Virus record (IMG/VR): IMGVR_UViG_3300030329_003230
Coordinates: 1 to 64,000 of that record
Source: a virus
DNA length: 64,000 nucleotides
Reading direction: 5' to 3' (one strand)
Below the pieces are notes generated by a model. The model searched no databases and had not been told where the DNA came from. It was given only the letters and a program-made list of their open reading frames with translations. Below are positions 2,589 through 59,100 of this stretch, piece by piece. Both the position numbers and the translations under genes were made by a program. How positions within the stretch are numbered: position 1 is the first letter of the stretch; each line of letters starts with the position of its first letter.

Positions 2589-2601
2589 ATTATTTCCTCC
2601 A

Positions 2602-33669: not shown

Positions 33670-34050
33670 GTGACTAGTTGGATGGTGGTGAATTTGGAGA
33701 TTCATGAGAGTAATAGGATAAAGCAAAGATGGACTGATATTTACGGAAAAATCACCGTCATTAATTACATGGTTTATGGTGATATAGGACAAAGAGATAT
33801 GTCCGTCATTAATTATGCTCTAAAAAAAACTTTTAATTTACATAAAACAGTTCAAATTGTGGAGCATATTGATTTCGAAATGGCAGAATTATTTGACATA
33901 TATCAAGGTACACATGTACAATGGATATTTCCAGATGAAATAAAAAATAAAGATAAAGTTATCCATCTAATAAAAGAAGGGTTAGAATTTCAAAGAATAA
34001 AAAGTGAATTTATGGGGGCTACAGTAGATGTTTACCAAAGAACAACTTGA
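33670..34050 (+). CDS. Hypothetical protein
   Basis: ORF in replication block. Confidence 0.6.
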   Translation: MTSWMVVNLEIHESNRIKQRWTDIYGKITVINYMVYGDIGQRDMSVINYALKKTFNLHKTVQIVEHIDFEMAELFDIYQGTHVQWIFPDEIKNKDKVIHLIKEGLEFQRIKSEFMGATVDVYQRTT

Positions 34051-34471
34051 AGGGATTATTGTTGCGTTAGCAAATCCTGAGATATCAATAGAGAAAGATG
34101 ACAAACAATCTATCGGTTATAGAATACGATTGAGAATTCATTTTAGGGCTATGAATGAAGATTTCATTTTAATACTAAAAGAAACATTAGAAGAACACGG
34201 TATAGATACTTATTATAGAAATAGAGAAAAAGAAACTAGACCTTACCCTTTACTTAGAATAACTAAGGTAGATAACATGTTTAATTTATTGAAGTTAATT
34301 CCTAAGAACTTAGAGTGGAATAGAAACTTTTCAAGTTTTTTAGAAGTATTAACCATAGTATCAAACAAGCACCATTTGGTGCAAAAAGGATTCGATAGAA
34401 TAGTAGAAATTAAAGAGGAGGCGAGCGGTTGGCGTTGGTGTCGATGGGAAATAAAGAAAGACCTATATTGA
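34028..34471 (+). CDS. Single-domain LAGLIDADG-fold protein with degenerate catalytic helix
   Basis: GYRIRLRIHF, LRIT and HLVQKGFDRIVEIK typical of LAGLIDADG homing endonucleases. Confidence 0.6.
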   Translation: MFTKEQLEGIIVALANPEISIEKDDKQSIGYRIRLRIHFRAMNEDFILILKETLEEHGIDTYYRNREKETRPYPLLRITKVDNMFNLLKLIPKNLEWNRNFSSFLEVLTIVSNKHHLVQKGFDRIVEIKEEASGWRWCRWEIKKDLY

Positions 34472-35280
34472 TAACTGGAAAAACCGGCACAGGTAAAACC
34501 ACTATGGCTAAATCTTTAGTTAATGATAATCATATTATGTATTATGCTAATGAAATAGAAGATAGAGATTGGAAATCCATAGAGCAAGATATCGTTATTG
34601 AGGAAGTACATTACAAGCCTAAAAAAGATATTATCATGAACATAATACGTCACTGTAAAACTACTATTGTATTAACTTCTAATAATGAAAAGGACGTACC
34701 TGCTGACATTAAGAATTCATGTAAATTAAGAAGGGCAGGAACTGTCCCTCATTCTTTAGAAGAGATTAAGAAAATAGCACCAAGGAGTCAAAATCCTAAA
34801 AATAAAGATATGAGTGTATTTGAGTTAGTTCAAGATTATTTGAAGAACACTAATAGAGATGAAGTTGCTAGTAATCTGAAAGAAAACAAACCAGCAGATG
34901 TTCAGATAATGACTTGGTTAGGTATGAATCTTAATCCAAATAAATTAGCATTCGTTGATGGTAGAGTCAAAAGAAGATGGTCACAGAATTACTTCTATGA
35001 ATTATTATCTTACTGCCATGATGGTAGAATGCATTCTAAAATTAATTATCCGAAAAGAGGAGCATATTCCAAAGTACCAACTATATTGAGGAAATTGAAA
35101 ATAAAACCAAACCAAGGTTATTTGTTACCTCAGTTATTACAAGACGAAGATTTTGAGGGATGGGCAAAGAAGAGACTAAGAAGCGATGAAAGTAGAGTGA
35201 TAGGTATGAAAGATAGAAAGAAGAAAAGAAACGCACCAATTACACCAGATAGAACTTTGAAATTAGAAGGATGGTTTTAG
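34429..35280 (+). CDS. Clamp loader (RFC) large-subunit-like AAA+ ATPase
   Basis: GKTGTGKTT, VIEEVH, LTSN; adjacent to RFC small subunit. Confidence 0.65.
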   Translation: MALVSMGNKERPILITGKTGTGKTTMAKSLVNDNHIMYYANEIEDRDWKSIEQDIVIEEVHYKPKKDIIMNIIRHCKTTIVLTSNNEKDVPADIKNSCKLRRAGTVPHSLEEIKKIAPRSQNPKNKDMSVFELVQDYLKNTNRDEVASNLKENKPADVQIMTWLGMNLNPNKLAFVDGRVKRRWSQNYFYELLSYCHDGRMHSKINYPKRGAYSKVPTILRKLKIKPNQGYLLPQLLQDEDFEGWAKKRLRSDESRVIGMKDRKKKRNAPITPDRTLKLEGWF

Positions 35281-36241: not shown

Positions 36242-37468
36242 ATGGAAGAACAAATGAAAGAAGAAATAGAAAAATATGCTGAAGTTATTGGCATTACGGT
36301 TGAGGATGCTTCAAGCATCTTTGATGGTATTGTCAAAGATAATAGTTTGGACGTAAGCACTGAAGAGGGACTCTTAGTAGCCCGAAGTGTCTTTAGGTCT
36401 AAATTTGCACAAACTAGAGCACGACTGAAGAAAGAAGAAGGTGGAGAAGAACAAACAACAACTGAATACACTGGCCCTACCTATACTCAAAAGGCAAAAG
36501 GATTCTTTTGGGCTGTAGAAAATGCTACTGATTGGGAAGAAAGAAACAGAAATAGTATTATGGCCGAATACCAAAGAGATGCTGATTCAGTTTTACAGAC
36601 TGGAAAAGCAGCGATAGCAGTTCAGCTATCTGATGGTAGGTATGAAGTTACTCTTGTATTAGATGGAGAAACCAATACTAAAGTTATGGAAAAACTACCA
36701 GAAGTAAGCCCAATGCAAGTTGATGATGACCGCTGGATTATACCAGTCGATAATCGTAAAGCTTGGGGAAGTGGTCAATCAAATCCATCTTATGGTAAAC
36801 CTCTACCCGCTAACCGATGGCAAAGAACTCTAATGTTTATTGGTAGTGTTGGTGATGGAGAACCTCAGAAATACCAGTTACGAGTTAATGGAGAACAAGC
36901 AATAGATTTCCATCCAAGGACTTTTGCTCTGTGTGAATTTGACTGTGTTCCTAATTCTAACAACCCTTCTAACCTTAGTGCAAGAAAGGATGGAAGTACA
37001 GTTAATTCCCTATCTTATTTAGATGAAGAAGTGGATATATTGAACATAGTTCAGGAACTATTAGGAGATAAGATTTCAGCATTAATTGCTCTAGACTCTT
37101 ATCATTCTGATAATTCACATAAGAATTATTCTGAGAGAATTGTAGTTACAGATGGTAATGTTGCTAATATGAATCTACAACCTTATGATAATGGGAACCG
37201 AGTTATCTATCTAAGTGACTTGAATGCAGACTTCGATTATGAAGGAGAAGGTTTCTCTTCAACTGCATGTTGGGTTCCTTCTACTATTGAAATCGATTTT
37301 GGAATCGGCAGCAACATTATTGTTGTTGGTCGTACCTCCCAAAGAGAAGTTGATGGCGAACTATCAAATGTTAGTATCAACGTTCTAGGGTTATATGTTG
37401 TGGATAGACATGGTAGTGCAGATGTTCCTGTACAACCAGAGGAGGACGACGATTACAGTTGGTTCTGA
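36242..37468 (+). CDS. ssDNA-binding protein (RPA/OB-fold, putative)
   Basis: C-terminal OB-like strands (FGIGSNIIVVGRT), acidic-aromatic tail EEDDDYSWF, replication context. Confidence 0.6.
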   Translation: MEEQMKEEIEKYAEVIGITVEDASSIFDGIVKDNSLDVSTEEGLLVARSVFRSKFAQTRARLKKEEGGEEQTTTEYTGPTYTQKAKGFFWAVENATDWEERNRNSIMAEYQRDADSVLQTGKAAIAVQLSDGRYEVTLVLDGETNTKVMEKLPEVSPMQVDDDRWIIPVDNRKAWGSGQSNPSYGKPLPANRWQRTLMFIGSVGDGEPQKYQLRVNGEQAIDFHPRTFALCEFDCVPNSNNPSNLSARKDGSTVNSLSYLDEEVDILNIVQELLGDKISALIALDSYHSDNSHKNYSERIVVTDGNVANMNLQPYDNGNRVIYLSDLNADFDYEGEGFSSTACWVPSTIEIDFGIGSNIIVVGRTSQREVDGELSNVSINVLGLYVVDRHGSADVPVQPEEDDDYSWF

Positions 37469-38620: not shown

Positions 38621-39400
38621 ATGGAAATAGAAGTAAATAAAAAACAAATAGTTGAAGCATTGAAAAATGTAGAAATGAGAGGAAAGTGGGCATCGTCCAG
38701 TGGTTTATCTTCAAAGTCTTTAGGAAATTATATTTATTTTAAATTAGAAGATAATCATTTATTGTTGATTAATTCTGATGAATCTACAACTGTTATAGAA
38801 TCACTATCTGTTGATTCTGAAGATGAAGGTTCTTTCGTTTTAGATATTGAAACTTTAAAGAAGTATTTGACTAAAATGAATGATACGATTACATTTGAAA
38901 TTGGCGATACAATCGTAATGAAATCAGATGGTAAAAGAGCAACAATGCCTATTGTTATTGAACACCCGTATCACGGTAGAATTGGTAGATTTGTTTCACA
39001 GTGGCCAAACCTTTCCTTTGAAGAGGAGTTAGAAAATATACCTAATGTTGGTTCAATGAATCTAACTTGTGCTATACAGATGACAGGAGAACAACTGTTT
39101 GATGCACTTGACGCTTGTGAAATTGTTAACAATGGAGTCTACAAAATTGATTATGTAGAAGAAGATGAGTTAAGTGAATCTAAGTGTGTTATATCCTCTG
39201 AAGAAATCATCTCATCTTATCGGGAAGAGATTGAATATTTATCCTCAATTGGGGAATCTTCCACGGTTCTTTTCAGTGGACCATTACACCGATTCTTCAG
39301 TAAGAAAGACACTATCAATGTCTTCATTGGAGATGACCAACCAATAATTATGATTAGTAATAATAGCGCATTGATACGTGCTCCAAGATTGAATATTTAA
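38621..39400 (+). CDS. Sliding clamp (PCNA-like)
   Basis: 259 aa, acidic, two-domain alpha/beta pattern, GDDQPI and C-terminal APR as in PCNA; near RFC and PolB. Confidence 0.7.
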   Translation: MEIEVNKKQIVEALKNVEMRGKWASSSGLSSKSLGNYIYFKLEDNHLLLINSDESTTVIESLSVDSEDEGSFVLDIETLKKYLTKMNDTITFEIGDTIVMKSDGKRATMPIVIEHPYHGRIGRFVSQWPNLSFEEELENIPNVGSMNLTCAIQMTGEQLFDALDACEIVNNGVYKIDYVEEDELSESKCVISSEEIISSYREEIEYLSSIGESSTVLFSGPLHRFFSKKDTINVFIGDDQPIIMISNNSALIRAPRLNI

Positions 39401-39409
39401 GGTGAAGGA

Positions 39410-40564
39410 ATGAGACAAACCTATCGTAATATGCCCTCTATGAGAGAGACACATCCTCATCTTGCTGAGGAATTTCATCCAACTAAGAATGGTGATTTAA
39501 CTCCTGATAATTTAATAGCAGGGACTAGTAAGAAAATCTGGTGGACATGTTCTACTTGTGAAAATGAATGGAAGACTAGGGGTGCTGACCGGACTTCAAG
39601 GGGACGAAAATGCCCACATTGTAGTCTTGGTAGATTACATTCAGATGGTAGAAACTCAATGGCTAACACCCACCCTGAATTAGCCAAAGAATATCAAGGA
39701 GATGCTACAAAAATAATAGCAGGAACGCATAAAAAGTTAGATTGGAAATGCTCTACTTGTGAACATAAATGGAAGACAAAAGGAAACAGTAGACAACAAG
39801 GAAGTGGTTGTGGTTATTGTGCCGGTCAATGTCTACATTCAGATGGAAGAAATTCTATGGCTAATACTCATCCTCATTTAGCACTTGAATACCAAGGAGA
39901 CGCTACAAAAATAATAGCAGGTACAATGAAGAAACTTCCTTGGAAGTGTTCCACTTGTGACCATGAATGGATAGCAGCAAGTTCTAGTAGAAGACATGCA
40001 AATCAGGGGTGTCCATGTTGTTCAGGAAGAGCGGTACATTCAGATGGTCGTAATTCAATGGCTAATACTCATCCACATTTGGCCAAAGAATATCAAGGAG
40101 ATGCTACAAAAATAACAGCAGGTACAGACAAACACCTTCTTTGGAAATGTTCCACTTGTGAATATAAGTGGTTAACTAAAGGTAAAGTTAGGGGTGGTAA
40201 ACAAGGCAGTGGATGTCCTTCTTGTGCAAAAAGGGCCTTCCGACCTAATGAAGCAGGTCATGTATATCTTATGAAATATGAAGGAGCAAATGAGAAAGTC
40301 ATTTACAAAATTGGAATATCTCATGATGTGGAGGAAAGGAGGAAAAAACTTCTTTCTAAGTATCTACAGAAAACACACTCTGAAATAAATATAGACATCA
40401 TTGACACAATGTACTTTGATACTGGTAAAGATGCAATGGAAATGGAAAAAACATTTCACGCAATGGAAGAACACCGTTTTACACCGAAAAAGAAATTCGA
40501 TGGTTGGACTGAGATGTTCAAAGCCTCGATTGTAGATGTATGGAATAGGATGGTAAAAACATGA
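39410..40564 (+). CDS. Zn-ribbon repeat protein with C-terminal GIY-YIG (T5orf172-like) nuclease
   Basis: Four THPxLAxE...WxCSTC...W...CxxC repeats; GHVYLM...YKIGIS...E...GWTEMF. Confidence 0.8.
   Translation: MRQTYRNMPSMRETHPHLAEEFHPTKNGDLTPDNLIAGTSKKIWWTCSTCENEWKTRGADRTSRGRKCPHCSLGRLHSDGRNSMANTHPELAKEYQGDATKIIAGTHKKLDWKCSTCEHKWKTKGNSRQQGSGCGYCAGQCLHSDGRNSMANTHPHLALEYQGDATKIIAGTMKKLPWKCSTCDHEWIAASSSRRHANQGCPCCSGRAVHSDGRNSMANTHPHLAKEYQGDATKITAGTDKHLLWKCSTCEYKWLTKGKVRGGKQGSGCPSCAKRAFRPNEAGHVYLMKYEGANEKVIYKIGISHDVEERRKKLLSKYLQKTHSEINIDIIDTMYFDTGKDAMEMEKTFHAMEEHRFTPKKKFDGWTEMFKASIVDVWNRMVKT
39638..40230 (+). repeat. Intragenic tandem repeats of about 200 bp
   Basis: CATTCAGATGG...ATGGCTAA at 39638, 39836 and 40037. 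Confidence 0.85.
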
Positions 40565-40664: not shown

Positions 40665-42332
40665 ATGGGAATATCAATGATTATATCTTGGATAGATAAA
40701 GACAAATCCATCAAAATAAGATGGAGAGATGAAGATAATAATCGTAAAGAGAAGAGTATAAACGATTTTGAACCATACTTTTTTATCCGTTCTATTGATA
40801 AAAGGCCAGAAACTTACAAGACTAAACATTACATTGGTCAAGGTAAATCAGTAAAACAGACGGGTTTTTTCAAATATAAAACTGGAAAGTATTACAATTT
40901 GAATAAAGAATCATTAACTAAAGTGTTCTACTCTCATCCTAAAGATGCAAAGAGTGCAAGAAATAACTTTTCTGCTACTTGGGAAGGAGATGTTCCTATT
41001 CTCCGTAGATATTGTGTTGACGAATTAAAGGCGGTTCCTGAATATGAATTGCGTAAATGGTATTGGGATATGGAATGGCTACCGGATGAACATGAACACG
41101 GTGGAGCAATTACTGCCATTAGTGTATATGATAACTATACTAATAAAATCAAATTATATTGGTGGAGCCATTGGCACGATAAGTCAAACACAATTATGAG
41201 AAGATTTAATTCAGAAAAAACAATGCTTGAGTCCTTCGTAAAAGATATGCAAAAGCAAGACCCTGATATGTTAATTGCTTGGTGGGGATTACAGTCTGAC
41301 GTTCCTAAATTAATTCAAAGATTATTTGATAATGGTATTGACCCAAGAGGACTTTCTCCCTATAAAGAAGTGAAGGGTGTAGGTTTTAACCATGTTAGTA
41401 AGTTAGATTACAGCGGAATTGAACAACCCATAAAAGGTAGATTATGTCTTAACTTAGATTTAGCATTTGAAAGACAATGGATGGATGCTCAAAGGGGAAC
41501 TCTACCTTCAACATCATTAGAATACTGTGCAAGTGTTTCTGTAGGTGAAGGTAAAAAGAAAGAGTCTAAATTTAAAGATAGAAATGAATTCTTTATGAAA
41601 GCGTGGGAAGAAGATACAACTAATTATCTTGAATACTGTATGCAAGATTCAGAATTACTTTATCGAATAGATGAGGAAATGGGATTAAGTGAAGGAGTAT
41701 TAGCAATTCAGAAACTAGTTAAAACACCCTTTGAAGATTGTTTCTTTGTTAGTCACATGGGAAGTACATATTTCATGAGAAACGCATGGTGGAAAGCCCC
41801 AACTGGGAAACATGCTGAAAAGAAAGAATATGATGGAGCATTAATCTATAATCCTCTTGACGAGGGAACTAATGGGTTACATACTAATGTAGCCGCTTTT
41901 GATTTCGCTTCTCTTTACCCATCGTGTATTCTTGCAAGGAATATATCTTGGGAAACTAAGAGTGAAACAGAAACAGAATTTGCTGTTAACATAAGAACAC
42001 CTAGAGACTTTTCAGATGTCACCCAAGAAGATTGGAAATACTATAAGACGGATGAGTTAGGTCTTTTACCAAATGCTATAGCTACTTTAAAGCCATTAAG
42101 GAAAGAATATAAAATTAAAATGTTAGAGGCTCTAAAATCAGATAATAAGAAAGACTACATTAAATGGAATTCAATGCAAATGGCAACAAAGCGACTATTA
42201 GCTTCTTTTTATGGAGTAGTTGCTTTACAGGGTTTTGGATGGTATGACGTGGATTTGGCTGCAAGTATAACAGCAAGTGCGAGAGAAGCAATTAGAGAAG
42301 CCGCATTTAAAGTGAGGGAGTTATCAGTATGA
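40665..42332 (+). CDS. polB: Family B DNA polymerase, N-terminal part (3'-5' exonuclease, motifs A and B)
   Basis: WDME, YCMQD, FDFASLYPS, KRLLASFYG; ends before motif C. Confidence 0.92.
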   Translation: MGISMIISWIDKDKSIKIRWRDEDNNRKEKSINDFEPYFFIRSIDKRPETYKTKHYIGQGKSVKQTGFFKYKTGKYYNLNKESLTKVFYSHPKDAKSARNNFSATWEGDVPILRRYCVDELKAVPEYELRKWYWDMEWLPDEHEHGGAITAISVYDNYTNKIKLYWWSHWHDKSNTIMRRFNSEKTMLESFVKDMQKQDPDMLIAWWGLQSDVPKLIQRLFDNGIDPRGLSPYKEVKGVGFNHVSKLDYSGIEQPIKGRLCLNLDLAFERQWMDAQRGTLPSTSLEYCASVSVGEGKKKESKFKDRNEFFMKAWEEDTTNYLEYCMQDSELLYRIDEEMGLSEGVLAIQKLVKTPFEDCFFVSHMGSTYFMRNAWWKAPTGKHAEKKEYDGALIYNPLDEGTNGLHTNVAAFDFASLYPSCILARNISWETKSETETEFAVNIRTPRDFSDVTQEDWKYYKTDELGLLPNAIATLKPLRKEYKIKMLEALKSDNKKDYIKWNSMQMATKRLLASFYGVVALQGFGWYDVDLAASITASAREAIREAAFKVRELSV

Positions 42333-42719
42333 AAAGAGGCGAAAGAAAAGACGGTAGCGTTGAAAAACACTGCGGAATTCGTATAGCGTCTAAGTGGAAT
42401 TACTGCCCGATGTGTGGTAAGAAAAAAGAAAAAGAGGTGATTAAATGGGTATAAAATATAAAATAATTACAAAGGTGATAGCATAATGAAATTTCATATT
42501 GTTAGTTTGTTAATTATAATAATTAGTGCTATATCTATTCTTTGGGCTTGGTGGAAAGGGAGAATGGGGGATTAAATGTTAGTTAAATGTCAAGAGTGTT
42601 CAACTCAATTTAGTATTAATATGTGGTCAACTATGAAACATCTATGTGGTAAGTGTTACCTTGAATATAAAAAGGAAATAAGAGAAGGCAAAAGGAATAG
42701 ATTAGGGAAGATGATATAA
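42329..42719 (+). CDS. Four micro-ORFs between the polB halves (42329-42454, 42445-42486, 42486-42575, 42576-42719)
   Basis: Read by hand: Zn finger (HCG...YCPMCG), 13-aa peptide, membrane peptide MKFHIVSLLIII..., Zn finger (CQEC...CGKC); all abut or overlap. Confidence 0.6.
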
Positions 42720-43645
42720 TGGACGTAGTTTATGCACATACAGATTCCCTTTATGTCCCTATACCATCAATAGAAGTTGCTCAAGATGTTCAAAAAATAT
42801 TGAATAAACACATACAAGAAGTAGTGTTTCCTAATATTATGAATTTAGAATCTCATCCTATGGATTTAGAATTCGAAAAATACTATTCTGTATTAGGAGT
42901 AGGAGCAACAAGAAATAGAAATGCTGGTTACATTAATTGGAAAGATGGAGTATATCTTGCTGAACCTGAGTTCTTCGCTACAGGGTTCTCCGTTAAGAGA
43001 ATAGCTGAATCCAAATTAGCGAAAGAGGTACAGAAGAAAACCTTGGAGATGTGGATTAATCAAAAAACAGAACAAGAGATTGTTACCTTTGTTAAGAAAA
43101 AATATAATGATGTTCTTAAAGGTAGAATAGATAAATTAAACTTAGTTAAAAGAAGTAGAGTTAAAGAAAATAGAATGACTCTAAAATGCAGGTGTAGAAA
43201 GAAATACAATGTAGATTATGTTAGAAAATTGTTGAGTGTATTACCTGAATCCTTATGTGAAAAGGATAATTGTAATAGTAAATTAATCTCTTGTACCACT
43301 GTAGAAGATAAAAGACCCTCTTTCGGTGGAGGGTTTGCTGGTATGTTATATTATAATGAGCACATTAATCCTCAACAAAAATTAGATGATTCGTTTTACC
43401 ACATTAAGTGTAAATTTGGTATTAACCAAAAACAGACTTTTACTAATTGGAATGGTAAAGAGAATAAAGCTGGATATATAGCGGTTAGAAATTTAGAAGA
43501 ATTAGAACCATTTGAGCCAGATTGGCCATTCTTAGCAGAAGCAGAGGTTCTTAAAAAAGTGAAACCTATATTCGAAGCGATGGAATGGGATATATCTCAA
43601 ATAAAAATAGATGAGAGTCAAACAAGTTTAGGAGATTGGTTTTAA
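42719..43645 (+). CDS. polB: Family B DNA polymerase, C-terminal part (motif C, thumb, PIP box)
   Basis: YAHTDSLY, LEFEKYY, C-terminal QTSLGDWF. Confidence 0.9.
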   Translation: MDVVYAHTDSLYVPIPSIEVAQDVQKILNKHIQEVVFPNIMNLESHPMDLEFEKYYSVLGVGATRNRNAGYINWKDGVYLAEPEFFATGFSVKRIAESKLAKEVQKKTLEMWINQKTEQEIVTFVKKKYNDVLKGRIDKLNLVKRSRVKENRMTLKCRCRKKYNVDYVRKLLSVLPESLCEKDNCNSKLISCTTVEDKRPSFGGGFAGMLYYNEHINPQQKLDDSFYHIKCKFGINQKQTFTNWNGKENKAGYIAVRNLEELEPFEPDWPFLAEAEVLKKVKPIFEAMEWDISQIKIDESQTSLGDWF

Positions 43646-44490
43646 TGGAATTTACATATCAATGGAACCCTGAATGGGAAGAAGACCCATCAATGCCTCA
43701 ATTAAAGGTTACAAAATCATCTTTGAATACGTTTGAATTCTGTAGAAAACAATATCAATTTAGCTACATAGAACGTATGAAGAGTGAACCTAACGCTGCA
43801 ATGGCAAGAGGTTCAGCAGTTCACGATTCCTATGAAAACTTCTACAATGAGTTTGACCTTAGAAAAGCAGAAAACTTAGACCAAAATAGCCTTTTTCAAT
43901 ATTGTATAGGTCTATTTCCCATAGATGATTACGGTGAAGTTTACCAGACTATGGCAGCGTTTGAAACTGAGAGGTTCTTCTCTTCAAAGGTAGAGAAATC
44001 TTTAGACAATTATCTACCAGTTGGTAATGAGGTAGCGTGCAATGCTAAACTCTTAATTAAGAAAGACATAAATCCGAAATTCGAATTAAAAAGAGATTAT
44101 ACAGTTCATATTCAAGGAATAATAGATAGAATTTTTAGAGAAGGTGATGGATACATCCCTGTAGAATTAAAGACAGGAGTTTGGAAAGATAGAAAACAAA
44201 CTCATATGAGAAATGAAATGGCTTTTTACAAAGTTTTGATGGATGCAGACCCTGATTGTAATTTTGACCCAGTAACTCATTGGGCTTGGTATTATCCAGA
44301 TTCAAATTATTTTCAAGTAGAAGAAGTGAAGAAAAGAAACCAAACTAATATTCCTAAGAGAATTTCTAAGTTGATTTATGCTTATGAACAAGGAATATTT
44401 CCAGCTTCTTACTTCCCAAATAAGTGTCAATTTTGTTCCTTCATAGGAATATGCGACTCTGCTCAACAAGCGGAACTTTGGTCGTGGTAA
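43636..44490 (+). CDS. Cas4-like PD-(D/E)xK exonuclease
   Basis: FC...RGSAVH...GIIDR...VELKTG...CQFC...C. Confidence 0.85.
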   Translation: MVLMEFTYQWNPEWEEDPSMPQLKVTKSSLNTFEFCRKQYQFSYIERMKSEPNAAMARGSAVHDSYENFYNEFDLRKAENLDQNSLFQYCIGLFPIDDYGEVYQTMAAFETERFFSSKVEKSLDNYLPVGNEVACNAKLLIKKDINPKFELKRDYTVHIQGIIDRIFREGDGYIPVELKTGVWKDRKQTHMRNEMAFYKVLMDADPDCNFDPVTHWAWYYPDSNYFQVEEVKKRNQTNIPKRISKLIYAYEQGIFPASYFPNKCQFCSFIGICDSAQQAELWSW

Positions 44491-45351: not shown

Positions 45352-46482
45352 TTGATGGACACTTCTGTTCAAAAGAATGCTGGGATGAAGGTGTTAAAAA
45401 TGAAATTCCCTAGAGAGGTTTGGCCAAGCGCAAACAAACAAACTAATTCCTTTGCAAGTAAAAGAAAATTAGTTAAGAGCCAGAAAGAGTTCAATGATTT
45501 CGTTAAATTATATAATGGAAAAATGAACTGTTTTACATCAGTATATGATTACAAAACTTATACTGAAAAACAAGCTATAGTTAACACAGTTATTCTAGAT
45601 AGAGTATTTTTAGATTTTGATGCTCATCACGGAGAAGTAAACAAAGCAACTGGAGCCCAATTAATTAACCCTGAAGAAATAGGAAAATGTTTAGAAGATT
45701 TATTTTTAGTTTTAGATTATTTACATTCTAAGGATTATAAATACGATATGTCATTTTCAGGTAGAGGGTTTCACCTATATGTTTACGGAGAACCAATAAA
45801 GGATATTCGTAGATTAACAGCCTTTTTTAATCAAATAAAGAAATATACTGTTAATGGTACATTAGATAGTTCTGCTATTTCCAGTAGAAGATTAAGACGT
45901 ATTCGTAACACTATGAATATGAAAGCATCATATGGAAAGGGATGTTATTATTGCATACCTCTATCTTATTCTGATTTAGAAGAGAAAACATTCATTGATG
46001 ATTTATTGGATATGGCTAAAAAACCTAACTTTACTTCTATTAATTATAGAGGGAACAAGTTAGTATCTTGGCCAGAAGTACCACCTATTGAAGAATCTGA
46101 AATAGAAGCCGAAGTAATAAATGTAGGAAACTTACCTATGCCACCTTGTATGCATAGTGCTATAATGATTGAAAACCCAACGGACCAATCAAGAGCATAC
46201 TTAGTTAGTTGGTATAAGGATTTATTATTATGGACTGACCCAAATGTGGGATTTATGGATAGTAAAGCTACACCTAGTTTTGATTCCCGCAATAAAATTA
46301 CAAATAAAATAGTAGCAGAGATTAAACACTTACACGAAGAACATGATGTTTGGTTAGATTTTAAAGAAGAAGTCACTAAATACCGAGTTAAATATATTGT
46401 AGATGGGAACTATAGTTTCCCTAATTGTGATAAACTGATATCTAACGGATATTGTATAGGAAAATGTTGGAGGATGAAATAA
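45352..46482 (+). CDS. Archaeo-eukaryotic primase, PriS-like domain fused to PriL-like Fe-S domain
   Basis: FLDFD, SGRGFHLY, RRIRNT, PPCM...C...C...C; start probably MKFPREVW. Confidence 0.85.
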   Translation: MMDTSVQKNAGMKVLKMKFPREVWPSANKQTNSFASKRKLVKSQKEFNDFVKLYNGKMNCFTSVYDYKTYTEKQAIVNTVILDRVFLDFDAHHGEVNKATGAQLINPEEIGKCLEDLFLVLDYLHSKDYKYDMSFSGRGFHLYVYGEPIKDIRRLTAFFNQIKKYTVNGTLDSSAISSRRLRRIRNTMNMKASYGKGCYYCIPLSYSDLEEKTFIDDLLDMAKKPNFTSINYRGNKLVSWPEVPPIEESEIEAEVINVGNLPMPPCMHSAIMIENPTDQSRAYLVSWYKDLLLWTDPNVGFMDSKATPSFDSRNKITNKIVAEIKHLHEEHDVWLDFKEEVTKYRVKYIVDGNYSFPNCDKLISNGYCIGKCWRMK

Positions 46483-46584
46483 ATGAAAGAAGGAAGACAA
46501 ATGACGTTATATGAATTTGGATTAAAAATGAAAGGACAAACTAGCTTATTGGATTATGGATTAAAGTTGGATGAAGAAGAATGA
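46483..46584 (+). CDS. 33-aa peptide with two tandem PIP-box-like motifs, not in track
   Basis: MKEGRQMTLYEFGLKMKGQTSLLDYGLKLDEEE; GGAGG RBS; abuts primase stop and overlaps next ATG. Confidence 0.75.
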   Translation: MKEGRQMTLYEFGLKMKGQTSLLDYGLKLDEEE

Positions 46585-47276
46585 CTCTAATAATAGATAG
46601 TAGAGAATCCTCTGATTTATCTGAAGAAGTAGAAGATAAAGCCAGAAAGATGAATATTATCACCAAAAAACAATGGATAGAAGTAGGAGACTATGTTATT
46701 GGTAATGTCTGTTTTGAGGCAAAATCTACTCATGATTTCTTATCTTCTATAGTAAGTAAAAGATTGTGGACTCAATTAGATAACATGGATAGGTGTTATG
46801 AAAATAACATAGTAATAATTTATGGTAGTCTACAGCACGCACTTACTTACACCAAATATTCTGCTAAATACAATAACATGCCAAGAGAAAGAAAAATACA
46901 ACTACTAACAAACAATTTCTATGGTGGTATTAGTAGAATAATTTTAGATTCAGATATTAAACCAGTTTGGGTTAAAGACGCATATGCAGCAGCATCAATT
47001 ATTTGCAGCGTTGCTAAAATGCAACCTGTAGATAGACCACCAATTAAGCCTCATATTTTCAAGAGGCAAACCACTGATGACATCAGAATAAACATGTTAA
47101 CGAGCATAAAAAGTGTTAGTGAAAAGAAAGCAAAGACACTTTTAAAACACTACGGGTCACTTATGGAAATAGGTGATTGCGACAAAAGGGAACTATGTTC
47201 TTTAGAGGGCATAGGAGACACAACAGCAGATAGAATATTATCTGTTTTCAATTCCGAAAAGGAGGTTAAACAATGA
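46581..47276 (+). CDS. ERCC4/XPF (Hef-like) structure-specific nuclease
   Basis: IDSRE, GDY, EAKS, C-terminal tandem HhH (GIGDTTA). Confidence 0.9.
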   Translation: MTLIIDSRESSDLSEEVEDKARKMNIITKKQWIEVGDYVIGNVCFEAKSTHDFLSSIVSKRLWTQLDNMDRCYENNIVIIYGSLQHALTYTKYSAKYNNMPRERKIQLLTNNFYGGISRIILDSDIKPVWVKDAYAAASIICSVAKMQPVDRPPIKPHIFKRQTTDDIRINMLTSIKSVSEKKAKTLLKHYGSLMEIGDCDKRELCSLEGIGDTTADRILSVFNSEKEVKQ

Positions 47277-49056: not shown

Positions 49057-49656
49057 ATGCCAAATGTTATGGCGATTGACTTAGAAACTAAGAATTTATC
49101 ATCAGATATTGGTGGTTGGGGTAATACCCATATGTTTCTAGTTTCTACAGTAACAACTTGGAACGGTAATACTGGTACTATTTATGTTGATGAACCAGTA
49201 TCTGATTCTTTTGTTAAGTCAGGGGTCCAGACTAAAACTCTTAACGAATTAAAATTTGATTTAGATGAACACTTCAAAAAAGGCGGATTACTATTAGGTC
49301 ATAACATTATATCTTTTGATTTACCAGTACTAAGAGATGCTATGGATATTTATTGTATTAGAAAATATATGACCCATAAACAATATATCGACACTAGCCA
49401 ATATTTACTAAAAGAAAGGGGAGAAAGATACGCACTAAACAATTTAGTTGACCATACTTTAGGAAGACAAAAGACTCTACACAGTATGGACGCACCCCGA
49501 TTATGGAAAGACGGAGACTATGATGCTGTAGTGGACTATTGTTTAAAAGACTCCCAATTAGTATATGATTTATGGAAATATGGTCAGCAAGAGGGAACAG
49601 TAAAGGCTTTTAATATAGACCAAGAGGAGGAAATAGAGATGGAGGTGAATTGGTGA
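49057..49656 (+). CDS. DEDD-family 3'-5' exonuclease (RNase H-like)
   Basis: IDLET, GHNIISFD, YCLKD. Confidence 0.85.
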   Translation: MPNVMAIDLETKNLSSDIGGWGNTHMFLVSTVTTWNGNTGTIYVDEPVSDSFVKSGVQTKTLNELKFDLDEHFKKGGLLLGHNIISFDLPVLRDAMDIYCIRKYMTHKQYIDTSQYLLKERGERYALNNLVDHTLGRQKTLHSMDAPRLWKDGDYDAVVDYCLKDSQLVYDLWKYGQQEGTVKAFNIDQEEEIEMEVNW

Positions 49657-52828: not shown

Positions 52829-53191
52829 TTATTTCACCTGCACCACAATTGTAAATTCTAAAATATCAGTTGCCGTTATTGGCCCCACACCATCAAAATC
52901 AATTCTGTTTAACATATTACCACTACTATCAAAAATTCCTACTTCTGTTATTGTATATCCAGTTAACGCCGAAGCACTTCCTAAGAAACTCGCCTTGAAT
53001 TCCACTCCTGTATCATTTGCTAATGTTGATGAAATATTACTTGTTACCGTTGGTACTCCATTTGTTGTTCTTGGTGAATCTAATTCATTTGCGCTTGGAT
53101 TAGTACTATCTGTTCCTGTTCCTACATCCATACTGGCAAAATTAGTTTTAATTAACGTTGCTATCTGTTTCTTTCCTTCTTCTGTTATCAT
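52829..53191 (-). CDS. Small baseplate/tail structural protein
   Basis: MITEEGK...VGTGT...ITEVGIFD..GNML motif of fibre-attachment domains. Confidence 0.7.
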   Translation of the reverse strand: MITEEGKKQIATLIKTNFASMDVGTGTDSTNPSANELDSPRTTNGVPTVTSNISSTLANDTGVEFKASFLGSASALTGYTITEVGIFDSSGNMLNRIDFDGVGPITATDILEFTIVVQVK

Positions 53192-56100
53192 TCAAACGCC
53201 TTCCCTTTAGTTAAATCTAAATCCAACATTAATGTCTTATTGGATAGTGTTGCTGTTCCTCCACTCAAAGTAAATCCTAATGTGGTACTGAATCCTAATA
53301 ATGCCCCCGAAGAGAAACCTAAATTTGTACTTGCGTCTGCTGGACAATACAATAAGTCTCCTTTAGTTAAAGTGACACTGAGAGGAGTAACAAGAGTAAT
53401 CTGAGTAGAACTTACTGATTCTATAACCCCTAAGTTAGTACCAGCGTTTGTGTAGAGGTTCGCTCCAGCAAGGAAAGTGCTACTAATATCAATAGTTGTT
53501 GAAATTTTATCACCACTAGATACAGTAGCAGCAACGCCGGTATAATTCATATCAGCACTAGTAGTTATTTTATGAACTTGTAATGTTACTTCTCCTATCT
53601 CTAATTCATCAAATAAATCGATATCTTGGTTAAGAGTTTCTGCTATATCTTCTTTGAAAGTTCTATCTAATCGTTTAATTTCAGTAATATTTTCAGCCAA
53701 CAATTGACCCAATCCCTTTGAATATTTACTCAAAGTTAATTTGACAACTCCATCTATAGAATAGTCAATTCCAGTTATCATATAATTCGAACGAGGAATA
53801 TTTTCAGATGGATAATGAACAACTACACTATCTGCAATTTTAACTAATTCAGTACCTCTTCGGTCAGTTTCTATTTTTAATTCTATATTTTCAGAAGAAT
53901 GTAATCTCAATAATTTTTGAGCCAATTGTTCTGCTTGAACTTTATCAGAAATTGTTCTATCTATTCTTTCTAATGTCCTTTTACCTTTTAATTTGATACT
54001 TTCTAAATCTCTTTTTCTGACTTTCAAATCTTTACCATATACCACTACGTCATTGTATAACTCAAAGGTGTTTTTATTTTTGGAAGCCAACATAATATTT
54101 TGAGTATCTTTATTCATTTCATCTATTTCGATAGATGTATTACGTTCAAAATCTTTAGAAGAAGATACTTCTATAGTGTTATTATCAACATATAATTCTA
54201 AGTCTTTGTTACCCAATATAGAACTACAGGCTGAAAATAAGTTAGATTCTCCACCAAGGAATTCAGGAGCCATAAAATAACTTTTAGGGGTTTCTGTCAC
54301 TGAAGTTATATCAGACCTTTTAGTATAATCTATTTCTTCTTTCTTTAAAATATTATTAACTATATCTTCTATCTCTGGAGCAACTGTTACTCCTACTCCT
54401 ATTGATGCGCTTTTTATATCACTCAGAGTAATTCTATCTTTAGTTGTAATTTCAAATATTTCCCCAATAGACAATATCCCTGCCGCCTCTTGCATATTAG
54501 TGAAAGATAATTCTGTACTGTTAGTGGACGCTTTAACTAACATAGTATCTTCCACTCTTATTTCACCATCTGTTTTTAACACATTATACTGAGTATTATT
54601 AGTAAATGGTTTACCAGAACCAAATAAGTTTCCTTTATCTCTACAAACAACATAATCGGAATTATCTGTATCTACATCTAAAGTAACATACATTGATAAT
54701 AACCCTTCATTGAATGGACTATCAATAGAATTATTTGTATTATTAGAATTAAACGAATTATTTATTTGTCCATACATCTCATTAGAGTATGGTTTTTTAC
54801 TCGTTTTTCTACTCATTACATATGTTTCAATATTATTAGGAGTAAAATTATATGTGCAAATTTCAGCGGGTTTCATTATTCTAAAGTGAGTATTTTTAGG
54901 AATATTAACATCATCAGTTAGACTAGAATCATATGCGCCATCAATATAAATTATATGTCGAATAATGTTATCTCTACCTTGAGTACCAGAACCAGTGGGT
55001 TCTTCAGCCTGACTTTTAACCTGAGTTTCGTGAGATACAACATAATATATTTTATCTGGAGTTATTCCTTCTACATTCCTAAAGAAATTACTACTAACAT
55101 CAGTTCCTATGTTCTGTGATATTGTTTCTTTAGTAGAAATTTTAGCAACTGTGGTATCATTCGCATTATTAGAAAAAGCAACATCTACAGTCAAAGCAGT
55201 ATCACTTGTTATACCTGTAATAATTCTAGTTTCTCCACTAACAGTTATTGAATCCCCTACAGATAATTCTGTTAAAAATTGTGTTCCTACTCCAGTTACT
55301 GAAGTAGAAGCAGCAGGGTCTATACTTCCAGTTAATGAATCTGAAGTAGTTCCGCTTAAATTTTTATCAAATAATGCTTCACTAGACTTACTTTCTCCAC
55401 TGTAAGAACCTGCTTCTGATACTAAATACATTCCAGTTAAATCTACAAAATTTAAGAAACCGTTACCTGCGGCTTGCGGTGGTTCACTAGTGTCAAAGGT
55501 ATCAATTTCTATTCTAACTAATTTCTTACCATCTGGAGAATTTTTCCATTCTACATCGGTAATATTTCCAGTAGAATAATTCTTAGAAATGTAATCATAT
55601 AAGAAATTAAATTTTATTTTATTTATGGCTGTGTAAGATTTTTGAGTAATAGTAGAATCATTAGCAGTAGTTGCGGAATAAGAATCATTGTATTTCCCTA
55701 ATGTTAAGGGAGTAGTTAACGTAGAAAATTCAGTGGAAAAGAATCCCATATCTAACATAGAAATATTACTCATTCTAAGTGGATAATATGGGAATTTATT
55801 ACTTGCGAATGTATTAAAATCAGTACCTTCTCTAAATCTATTACCTGATTTTGGATTATAATAATAAAAACTGTAACAAGGCATTACACTACCACTTAAC
55901 ATATTAGGGGTAGGATTAACAGCGGGCAAGTCATTATCAGTTACACTTGTATCTAAAGATAATACAAATACTGGACAGGCAACATATGTTAATGAACTAC
56001 CAGAGTAACCAGTACCTCCATCAGTGGCAAAATTACTAACGCCACTATAAATAGCATTATTAATTGGGTCTAATCTAGTAATGGCTCCACCGGATGCAGT

Positions 56101-59100
56101 AACTCTATACACAGCATTGAATTTAGCATTATTAGTTCTACCACCACTACCAGTAAAATCACTTTCTAAAATTAAAGCAACAACATCATTAGTAACATAA
56201 CCAGTACCACCCGCAGTTATACTAGTAATAGCACTACCCATAGCACTAGAAGTAGTAGTAATCCTTGCCATCTTACCGTATTGGGGGATAGTTCCACCAC
56301 TTGCGCTTCTTGTTGATTGAGTAGGAGTGGCATCACAAGTTTTTATTCCTGTAATAGAATGCCAAACTTGAGAATTATCAGTACCTGCACCAGTTGAAAT
56401 AGGATACAAGAAATTTATTTTCATTCCGTCGATTAAAGGAATATAATCGCTACCTGAATATCCGTTCTGTCTAGGTAAAAATATGAAATCATTACCAGTT
56501 ATTCTAATCATAGTATGAGTTAAATCCTGTGCGTTTGCAGATAAGTTAGGATAAGCCTGACCCTCTATGCCAGTTATGTAATCATTTTGTGCTCCGGTAA
56601 CTGTCGCTACAATTTTACTCATATTAGTTATAGGTAAAGTAGAACCTTGCATTAGTGTAAAGAAATTATTACTTAAATTTCTATAAATTGATTGGTTAGT
56701 TCCTAAATCTTCTAAAATTAATTGAATAGTTCCATCATAAGGTCTAGTGGGTATCATCGGTAAACCGTTAGTTGTACTTGCTCTAGTTGAGAAATCTGGA
56801 TGTTGAAAACTGTGAGAAATTAAACCCTTTCTAATTAAAGATGGTTCTTGTAATCTTCTTATTTCTTCATAAATACTGTAAGGCTTACTTAATGCCGCTA
56901 CTCCTATGTGATTATAATTTCTAAACCCAGTCTTTCCATGAAAGTAGTAATTATTGTAAGGAGAAGCAATCCATCTTTGGGTAGTAGTGCTACCAACGTG
57001 ACTATTACCACTTAATTCTACATATTGGTGTAATAATGGACTAAATTTATTAGATACTGCATCTAATTCTTTGTATTTATCATCTGAATTTAACCAACTG
57101 AAATCGTTTATTTTAGATGGGTCGCCGTTATCACCAAATAAAGAAAGGGCTAATGTAGCAGTATCAGTACTACTTGTAGCAGCATCTAAATCTGGATACA
57201 CTGGAGATTGTGGATTTTTAAGAGCGTTAGTATTTCTAGTGATTAATTTAGTACTAACCCTACTGCCGCCACTTGAGGCTAAAGATGCCATATATACTGG
57301 CCCAATGTAACTAGTAGCGTGGAAAGTTCCAGAAGCCCCACCCTCATGTAATTCTATAAAATGCCCCGAAGCACCAGAAATAGGGTGAGTAGTAACATAA
57401 TTATTCGCTTTACCAATTAATTCTCCAAATCTAGTAAATAAATAATGCCCATCAATACTACCACTCGCTTCAGGGTCTGCATCTAAAGTAAGATATCCCA
57501 TCCTTGTGCCTGAAACGCTATTTGTATAAGCAGTAATTTGGAAATTATTCAAATTAGTACCATCAATATTATCAGGTAAATCTATTGGTTGATTCAAATA
57601 ATAATGTTTGATATCGCTATTATAGAGGCTTTCCTTTACAGTTGGTGGGTTTTCACCATCAATTGGGTTAAATGTAAAATCATAAGTTGCTTCTATTAAT
57701 CTCATTAATCCGAATCTTTTTATTTGGTTTGGGGTTATAGATGCCGAATTAATATCTAGGGTTTGTTGAGAAGTATCCAAATATTCATCTCTTGGGATTG
57801 TTCCTAAATATTTATCTTGTTTTAATTCACCTACTTTTTCTGGACTATGTGATTTTAAAATCAAAGAGTAATCAGTAAATACACTATCAGATAAAAACCC
57901 GATGTGATTATCTCTTCTCATAGATTCAGGTAAAATATCAGAAATTGAAAATAAGAAATAAGTTGGTGATTTTGGGTCAGATACTTGTAGCATATCTCTT
58001 ATTTCTAATATAGAATTGTATCCGTGTCTTGGTAGATGGGGGCTTGCATCACCACTAGTTTCATCATAATGGAAAGAACCAACAGAAAAAGTATTGCTAC
58101 CGGGTATTCCCGCTTTAGGTATCATATAGATTGGAGCCATTAAATCATCATCTTGTAAAAGAGAATTAGAACCTGTAGTAGCAGTATTTGTTTCAGCATA
58201 GAATTTCTCATAATCTCCGAAATTACTACCTAAAATACCAAAAGTTCCTCTTTCGTAGGGGGCTGGATATAAATTTTTAATCATTAAAGAGTTATGAACG
58301 TAATTTTTTGTATAATCTGTTCTTAATTCTTTAGTTAAAGACTCTTCAATAGTAATTCCACCCCTATTTCCGGGGTAAAATTTTACTAATTGGGCTACAC
58401 CTTTAACTTTAGAAGAAGTATTTGAGTAATTTAAATTATGAGAACTTTCAATATAATTTATTTTTTTAATCGGATTTCTATTGAGCGTTCCAGATTTAAA
58501 TCTATTTAAATTAGTATATTTGAAATATAACCCACCATAGGGAAAAAAGGTAAGAGGTACTGGAATTTTATAAGCATTAGAAATATTAGAGCCTTTTATT
58601 GAATCAATAGGAGCGATTATACCCCCAACAGGTAAACCTTGAGTGTTAATTAAATATAAGTGGTCTGTATTATTTTCACCTAACACCTGAATACTAGTGA
58701 CTCCTGACATTGAATCTTGGATATTCCTATCCATTTCTATTACATAATAAACTACAGAAGTATCGGCTGTAGCATCTAAAATGTGAGTCTCAAAAAATCT
58801 TTTTCCTGTACCTAAATACACTCCAGAAGTATTGTAAATTGGACCTAATAACCTCTTTAAAGTGGCATCACTCATAGCAGAAGGTAAAAAACCAGTGATT
58901 CTATTACCTTTACAATAAGCATGAATTGTAGTTAAACTATCATCAGCAAAAACAGAATTACTAGTTTCATTAGGGTTTTGGTCTACTCTTCCTAAAATGA
59001 CGGGGAAAGTTGGGGCTACTCTAATTGTAGTGCTAGCATCAGAATTAGGATTAAATGATACTATAGTATATTCTGATAAACTATTAGGGGAATAAGAGTT

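Follow-up and report, generated by a model that had tools for sequence, protein, structure and literature searches.

Tandem PIP-box-like motifs in a conserved miniprotein gene of a magrovirus replication module

Between the primase gene and an ERCC4-type nuclease gene of an archaeal virus lies an open reading frame of 33 residues that contains two similar short motifs in tandem, and the locus raises the question of whether this is a gene in its own right and, if so, what its product might bind. The virus record is 87.4 kb long and 100% complete according to CheckV; the 64 kb of it analysed here are called the window. Magroviruses are uncultured tailed viruses linked to marine Poseidoniales and have never been brought into culture (PMC10768690), and the gene set described for the Magrovirales includes PolB, a PCNA-type clamp, RFC, an AEP primase, a ligase, a chaperonin and nucleases (PMC10768690; PMC5434244). 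Domain searches and the fold of the clamp identified the replication genes of this set in the window and record, and by its gene content we assign the virus to the magroviruses (order Magrovirales), tailed viruses of marine Poseidoniales archaea.

The peptide gene and its surroundings

The replication module of the window comprises an ATP-dependent ligase, two RFC-like ATPases, a PCNA-fold clamp, a family B polymerase in two genes, a PD-(D/E)XK (Cas4-like) nuclease, an archaeo-eukaryotic primase, an ERCC4/HhH2 nuclease and a Cpn60/TCP-1 chaperonin. A split DNA polymerase is described as the mark of group B1 magroviruses (PMC5434244), and the split PolB of the window agrees with this trait. Also within the module are an HNH endonuclease gene (phrog_12980, 34028-34471) and a gene for a DUF4379/T5orf172 protein (39410-40564), which look like insertions of the homing-endonuclease type; the structural half of the genome contains an ORF of 2992 aa on the minus strand (53188-62166). 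The features that bear on the peptide are as follows.

38621-39400, plus strand: virus-encoded PCNA-fold sliding clamp, 259 aa, pI 4.55 (phrog_947, 'DNA polymerase processivity factor', E 1.1e-6)
40665-42332 and 42719-43645: the split family B polymerase, its two genes lying 386 nt apart
43619-43642, plus strand: QTSLGDWF, the PIP box of the PolB C-terminal fragment, which the peptide's boxes resemble
45352-46482, plus strand: archaeo-eukaryotic primase (phrog_16345 primase, E 1.8e-9; weak PF04104), adjoining the peptide ORF upstream
46469-46473, plus strand: ribosome-binding site (GGAGG) of the peptide gene, 9 nt upstream of its ATG and within the conserved C-W-R codons of the primase
46483-46584, plus strand: 33-aa miniprotein ORF, ATG to TGA, with tandem PIP-box-like repeats; conserved, pN/pS 0-0.70
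46498-46524, plus strand: box 1, Q6-L14, QMTLYEFGL (family table; AF2 one-turn helix at residues 9-12)
46537-46563, plus strand: box 2, Q19-L27, QTSLLDYGL (family table; AF2 one-turn helix at residues 22-25)
46570-46584, plus strand: acidic tail D-E-E-E with the TGA stop, which overlaps the ERCC4 ATG
46581-47276, plus strand: ERCC4/XPF-type nuclease with an HhH2 domain (PF02732, E 2e-15; HHH_2, HHH_5), adjoining the peptide ORF downstream

A previous, sequence-only reading of this DNA had described the product as MKEGR-QMTLYEF-GLK-MKG-QTSLLDY-GLK-LDEEE, and the ORF list of the window contains exactly this ORF and sequence. Its account of the gene's surroundings was likewise borne out: the ORF fills the gap between primase and ERCC4 nuclease exactly, with the primase stop TAA (46480-46482) immediately 5' of the peptide ATG and the peptide TGA overlapping the ERCC4 start in an ATGA at 46581, and the GGAGG site lies where a ribosome-binding site was proposed. 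Both repeats fit Q-x-x-L-x-x-[FY] (Q6 to F12 and Q19 to Y25), and the PolB tail QTSLGDWF, to which the second had been likened, is found at the end of the C-terminal PolB fragment. Absent from that reading is the observation that in the window the peptide ORF shares the frame of the primase, with one TAA between the two.

The two 39-nt repeat units are identical at 26/39 DNA positions, so both boxes clearly stem from one repeat. Among random 33-mers of the local amino-acid composition, two or more loose motifs arose at a frequency of 1.6e-4, and two strict motifs (Q.[ST]L.[DE][FYW]) occurred in none of 2,000,000. The window has 443 six-frame ORFs with a length of 30 aa or more, and Q.[TS]L..[FYW] was counted six times among them, twice in this peptide and once in the PolB tail. 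No Pfam or PHROGs family was matched by the peptide, and the ESM Atlas, which contains its sequence, yielded no usable neighbour.

Conservation, selection and family breadth

With the ERCC4 protein as query, IMG/VR yielded 146 relatives, 80 of which were kept. Eleven of these 80 loci (L001-L006, L008-L011 and L016) carry a tandem-box ORF of 27-31 aa between primase and ERCC4. A twelfth carrier, the contig of L007, came to light when the peptide alignment served as the query (65 pattern matches, from which 14 loci were confirmed); it appears there as L083, with the peptide directly after the primase. In this contig, two Cys-rich, zinc-finger-like ORFs of 93 and 66 aa (2591-3069) interrupt the tail of the peptide while both boxes are kept; the 66-aa ORF carries the old peptide tail at its own end (...DYGLKPIEE), which places the insertion point inside the flank of box 2. 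The peptide is thus present in 12/12 loci whose ERCC4 identity is at least 73%, and in 0/68 loci at 70% or less. In the ERCC4 tree the carriers fall within one starred clade (97/93), alongside three non-carriers, and the peptide gene may have been gained once in this lineage. Conservation in relatives was one of the checks that the sequence-only reading had set, and the outcome is favourable: all twelve close loci keep the boxes as a separate gene. In a corresponding ERCC4 scan of genome contigs the only match was a 2.1-kb contig (L100) with a magrovirus-type ERCC4 (57% identity) in a MAG labelled Acholeplasmataceae, an assignment that is probably a case of mis-binning.

The signals around the gene are also kept. 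An ATG preceded at a similar short distance by GGAGG or GGAGA was found in 11/11 related loci, and in the relatives the terminal GAGGA codons of the peptide ORF double as the ribosome site of ERCC4. Peptide and primase are read in different frames in 10/11 loci, where the peptide ORF may overlap the primase end; among the eleven, only L001 has the peptide in the primase frame, as do the window and L112, each with a single TAA between. Because the relative frame is not conserved among loci, a fusion to the primase by read-through or frameshifting was rejected.

Substitution patterns point to constraint on the amino-acid sequence. All 27 informative pairs gave a pN/pS between 0 and 0.70 over the 22-codon core, and L005 and L006 differ by five synonymous and no non-synonymous changes. 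Over three phylogenetically non-overlapping pairs, non-synonymous changes made up 10.5 of 25 differences against 19.6 expected, a deficit with a rough binomial P of ~3e-5 to 2e-4, calculated without transition/transversion correction. By these comparisons, the peptide sequence itself is under purifying selection, and the ORF is a real, conserved, selected and separately translated gene.

The junction between primase and ERCC4 differs in content elsewhere, and on comparison of the loci we regard it as an insertion hot spot. In a sister clade (L012-L015 and L047, ERCC4 ~70% identical) the slot at ~2910-3000 holds a hydrophobic ORF of ~29 aa with a conserved W-D-S and no PIP boxes; the idea that this mini-ORF is frameshifted peptide DNA was examined in L012 and L014 and rejected, as the DNA alignment gave no convincing homology. 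In L043, L060, L066, L068 and L074 an ORF of ~110 aa is inserted between primase and ERCC4 (~2680-3001), ending in ...LQEEE in L043, L060 and L074.

To place these peptides more broadly, a profile of nine of them was run against 1.84 billion representative proteins, and 14 matches were obtained at E <=0.001. Twelve of the 14 are miniproteins of 27-52 aa, labelled 'hypothetical protein' or left nameless in their source databases. The other two, P0057 (585 aa, E 1.1e-5) and P0062 (281 aa, E 2.2e-4), are long repeat proteins that were judged unrelated and excluded from the family; P0057 begins with what resembles a signal peptide, and its four or five repeats include ...YGLKIDA.TTV.DF..., which we take as a chance likeness.

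Eight loci emerged from a metagenome scan. The order primase, peptide, ERCC4 recurs in L109, L111 and L112, and a second arrangement, PolB, peptide, a 124-aa ORF and a PD-(D/E)XK nuclease, was seen in L105-L108; the arrangements were read from these seven loci, the eighth, L110, coming from a record of 12,180 bases, equal in length to the contig of L007. In this second lineage the PolB upstream of the peptide is of family B (PF00136, E 1e-45) and unsplit; it aligns with the C-terminal PolB fragment of the window up to the start of the PIP tail and then ends tailless, as ...LFGDENNE in L105 and with similar PIP-less ends in L106-L108. The peptide gene has its own ATG and GGAG site here too, and its frame relative to PolB is inconstant: +1 in three loci, and the same frame in L108 with >100 nt and stops between. 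Taken together, the sequence comparisons indicate that this is a real and hitherto undescribed family of free tandem PIP-box miniproteins.

Motif anatomy, candidate clamp target and alternative readings

The family table holds 35 distinct peptides; two unrelated ORFs of the window (70 and 40 aa, in other frames) that fit the loose two-box pattern were left out of its counts. Box 1 has the consensus Q-x-T-L-x-[ED]-[FYW]-G-[LM] and box 2 the consensus Q-x-[TS]-L-x-D-[FYW]-x. By position, the two boxes read as follows.

Position 1: Q in box 1 and Q in box 2, 35/35 each (imposed by the pattern)
Position 2: variable in both boxes
Position 3: T in 35/35 in box 1; T 28, S 5 and Q 2 in box 2
Position 4: L in 35/35 in box 1; L in 34/35 in box 2
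Position 5: mostly F or Y in box 1; variable in box 2
Position 6: E or D in 33/35 in box 1; D in 33/35 in box 2
Position 7: F, Y or W in both boxes of all members (imposed by the pattern)
Position 8: G in 33/35 in box 1; G 26, Y 5, F 1, I 1, V 1 and Q 1 in box 2
Position 9: L or M in 33/35 in box 1; L in 25/35 in box 2

Since the collecting regular expression imposed Q at position 1, an aliphatic residue at 4 and an aromatic one at 7, the counts of 35/35 at these positions are not independent evidence; in plain alignments the three are invariant or nearly so, with Q invariant in alignments A1 and A5, for which no pattern was used. The spacing from Q to Q is 13 residues in 33 of the 35 peptides, with single cases of 16 and 19, and in P0061 a third, partial repeat precedes the two boxes. 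Such variable spacing, together with the extra repeat, fits independent modules.

A PIP box has the consensus Q-x-x-[LIMV]-x-x-[FYW]-[FYW]. The boxes of the window follow it at position 1 (Q6, Q19) and at positions 4 and 7 (L9/F12, L22/Y25), and depart from it at position 8, where both have Gly. The description of the peptide as two tandem PIP boxes in the sequence-only reading therefore holds for positions 1, 4 and 7 and not for position 8: on their residues, the boxes of the window are PIP-like rather than canonical. Box 2 of 7/35 family members, with Y, F or I at position 8, is a canonical PIP box.

An AF2 model of the free peptide (21-sequence alignment) had a mean pLDDT of 77 and a pTM of 0.26, with no tertiary fold and with helices only at residues 9-12 and 22-25, which coincide with positions 4-7 of each repeat. 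Two one-turn helices without a fold fit two independent short linear motifs. The peptide has a pI of 4.9, and net charge across the family ranges from -7 to 0 with a mean of -3.7.

A motif of the form Q-x-[TS]-L-x-[ED]-W-[FW] forms the very C-terminus of PolB in most of the related loci that reach that gene, and because these PolB ends show the same signature as the boxes, the peptide appears to copy the C-terminal PIP tail of the magrovirus polymerase. A recent copying of the DNA itself from the PolB tail is not supportable, the identity being too low (14/24 for box 2, 11/24 for box 1). Other proteins of the window end in aromatic residues: an RFC-like ATPase (34429-35280) in ...LEGWF, a 408-aa protein (36242-37468) in ...DYSWF, the Cas4-like nuclease (43636-44490) in ...QAELWSW and a DnaQ-like exonuclease (49057-49656) in ...EVNW, the last two tails being conserved across related loci. 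Together they may serve as C-terminal tails for docking on a clamp, a different set from the internal F/Y-G boxes of the peptide.

The virus encodes a candidate receptor for such motifs. The AF2 model of its clamp had a pLDDT of 91.6, and the top Foldseek matches of this model were archaeal PCNAs (E ~1e-12, TM 0.65-0.72), among them entries of PCNA with a PIP peptide and of PCNA with TIP; PDB 5da7 (TIP) and 7evp (Gp168, by its title) were among the fold matches. PF00705 is absent from the virus record.

The reading we lean towards, with confidence a little above even, is that the peptide acts as a free PIP-type ligand in the client pocket of a PCNA-type clamp, in competition with PIP-tailed enzymes. 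On this proposal, a free, acidic and largely unfolded peptide, consisting of little beyond two strung-together short linear motifs of the PIP-box type, would be made from the replication operon via translational coupling between the primase and ERCC4 genes. Each box would occupy the PIP pocket on a PCNA-type clamp, which is also where the viral PolB tail would go; the peptide would thus compete with PIP-tailed clients and serve as a clamp plug or regulator. Binding and its consequence are predicted from the motifs, and the target may be the host or the viral clamp: in the first case host replication and repair would be shut off, and in the second the exchange of polymerase on the clamp would be modulated.

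The adherence of the boxes to the PIP rules at positions 1, 4 and 7, their likeness to the PolB tail, the canonical box 2 of some relatives, the place of the gene behind a PIP-less PolB in the second lineage and the presence of a viral PCNA-fold clamp all argue for a clamp ligand. A precedent is TIP, a small archaeal protein whose PIP motif, likewise non-canonical, mediates its binding to PCNA (PMC6204406). Against a clamp ligand stand the Gly at position 8 in this virus and in most relatives, a place that canonical PIP boxes fill with an aromatic or hydrophobic side chain, and the acidity of both peptide (pI 4.9) and viral clamp (pI 4.55); high-affinity PCNA binding of p21 is described as driven by positively charged flanks (PMC12366268). 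A further point against is that the presumed clamp tails of the virus end in W-F-COOH or W-COOH, whereas the boxes of the peptide have an internal F/Y-G; given this difference, the boxes could prefer another clamp, that of the host.

Between the end of box 1 and the Q of box 2 there are just five residues, a linker that is probably too short to span neighbouring PIP pockets of a PCNA trimer. Occupation of two pockets of one ring by both boxes is therefore unlikely, and the bivalent bridging suggested by the sequence-only reading is doubtful in this form. Of the points around that interpretation, a conserved and selected gene, PIP-like boxes that mimic the PolB tail and a viral PCNA-fold clamp are supported by the present data, and binding to the host or the viral clamp is a prediction. 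The variable spacing and repeat number would instead point to avidity or rebinding, or to two partners.

Two partners are the core of the main alternative, possible but unlikely, in which the peptide would be a detachable clamp tether acting in trans, an adaptor rather than an inhibitor: box 2 would sit on the clamp, and box 1 or the acidic tail on a neighbouring enzyme that lacks a PIP box of its own, namely PolB in the second lineage and, in this virus, the primase or the ERCC4 nuclease. In every case the gene comes after an enzyme of polymerase type that lacks a PIP tail (the primase of the window ends in ...GKCWRMK, and the PolB of L105 was described above), and the ERCC4 nuclease of the window has no PIP tail either. 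The two boxes are also conserved differently, with G at position 8 in 33/35 for box 1 and box 2 being the more PIP-canonical; the acidic peptide contrasts with a basic primase (pI 8.7), ERCC4 nuclease (pI 8.5) and C-terminal PolB fragment (pI 8.3); and translational coupling with ERCC4 suggests matched amounts. Both boxes, however, come from one repeat (26/39 nt) and resemble the same PolB tail, which makes two different partners the less simple reading, and the PolB of this virus already has a PIP tail of its own. The link to ERCC4 is moreover loosened in L083, in which two genes lie between it and the peptide while the boxes are kept. As a variant of the tether idea, two or three boxes may cross-link clamp rings.

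PIP-like motifs can bind partners other than clamps, and the boxes might thus engage another replisome protein, such as an MCM-like helicase, an RFC-like loader or an SSB, the likeness to the PolB tail then reflecting a common partner that is not the clamp. We consider this improbable. The Gly in place of an aromatic residue at position 8 and the shared acidity of peptide and clamp would both be accommodated, but the PIP rules are followed at positions 1, 4 and 7, position 8 is canonical in 7/35 relatives, and, in a virus that has its own PCNA-fold clamp and RFC, a family B polymerase ending in Q-x-x-L-x-x-W-F bears the classical clamp tail.

That the peptide has no function of its own, and is a translated spacer that passes ribosomes from primase to ERCC4 or a filler at an insertion hot spot, appears highly improbable. 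The junction does carry inserts that differ by clade, some loci having larger ORFs and some none, and the terminal GAGGA codons do double as the ERCC4 ribosome site; the conserved positions, however, are those of the motifs and not the ribosome-site codons alone. A spacer is also at odds with purifying selection on the amino-acid sequence, with the occurrence of the same peptide family at another genomic place, behind PolB, and with survival of the peptide after the L083 insertion had separated it from ERCC4. Scarcely credible is a C-terminal extension that would give a fraction of the primase a PIP tail by stop-codon read-through or frameshifting, for the in-frame arrangement of the window, L001 and L112 with its single TAA is outweighed by the other frame and partial overlap of the primase end in 10/11 loci, by the ATG and ribosome site of every copy, and by the second lineage, where three loci have the gene behind PolB in the +1 frame and L108 has it in frame but with >100 nt and stops between.

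Significance and comparison with known systems

A PIP box is usually part of a larger protein, as one of its tails or loops. If the clamp-ligand reading is correct, a free polypeptide of 27-39 aa consisting of two PIP boxes alone would, to our knowledge, have no smaller counterpart among natural clamp ligands and would be an instance of short-linear-motif mimicry in an archaeal virus; if the tether reading were true instead, these viruses would have turned the PIP tail of a replication enzyme into a polypeptide of its own that can be exchanged. Poseidoniales, the hosts of magroviruses, are reported to rank with the most abundant archaea in surface ocean waters (PMC10160649). As magroviruses are uncultured, the peptide in synthetic form, together with two recombinant clamps, would offer a cheap and direct biochemical handle on their dealings with host or viral replication, and a peptide selective for one clamp would provide a natural template for inhibitors of the clamp pocket. 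No description of the peptide was found in the literature on magroviruses with PCNA or PIP, or on tandem PIP boxes in archaeal viruses (supplements aside), and the available portions of PMC5434244, PMC7544198 and PMC10160649 make no mention of PIP boxes.

The nearest comparison is with the PIP tails of PCNA clients such as the magrovirus PolB, with which the boxes share Q at position 1, T or S at 3, L at 4, an acidic residue at 6 and an aromatic one at 7, as well as a predicted one-turn helix at positions 4-7. The boxes differ from such tails in being free of an enzyme, internal or N-terminal, doubled, and mostly supplied with Gly at position 8. In eukaryotes, p21 (CDKN1A) has a disordered C-terminal PIP peptide, a competitor of polymerases for the PCNA pocket, and box 2 of some family members comes near to the canonical consensus that it represents. 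The p21 motif, however, is a single box with positive flanks in a larger regulatory protein, whereas the viral peptide is free, 27-39 aa long and acidic, and has two boxes.

Among archaeal proteins, the Thermococcales inhibitor of PCNA (TIP) is a small protein that carries a PIP motif of non-canonical type and breaks the PCNA trimer, and is described as having one such motif followed by an amphipathic helix of 17 residues (PMC6204406). TIP and the peptide are both small proteins of the archaeal world with a non-canonical PIP motif; action on PCNA belongs to TIP and is only predicted for the peptide, which has two motifs and, in the AF2 model, no long helix, and so falls outside the TIP type. 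A profile search of all PDB chains with alignment A5 at E up to 10 gave two unrelated matches at E ~0.2, with neither a solved PIP-peptide chain nor TIP among them. Twort Gp168 is a phage-encoded sliding-clamp inhibitor that blocks the DNA channel of the bacterial beta-clamp (PMC8565349). Both it and the peptide are small virus-encoded proteins, and aim at the host clamp is a property of Gp168 and a candidate property of the peptide; Gp168 occupies the DNA channel rather than the client pocket, and is unrelated in sequence and in the domain of life to which its host belongs. Set beside these systems, what is new here is probably the occurrence of the PIP-box type of clamp ligand, as judged from its motifs, in the form of a stand-alone tandem miniprotein of an archaeal virus.
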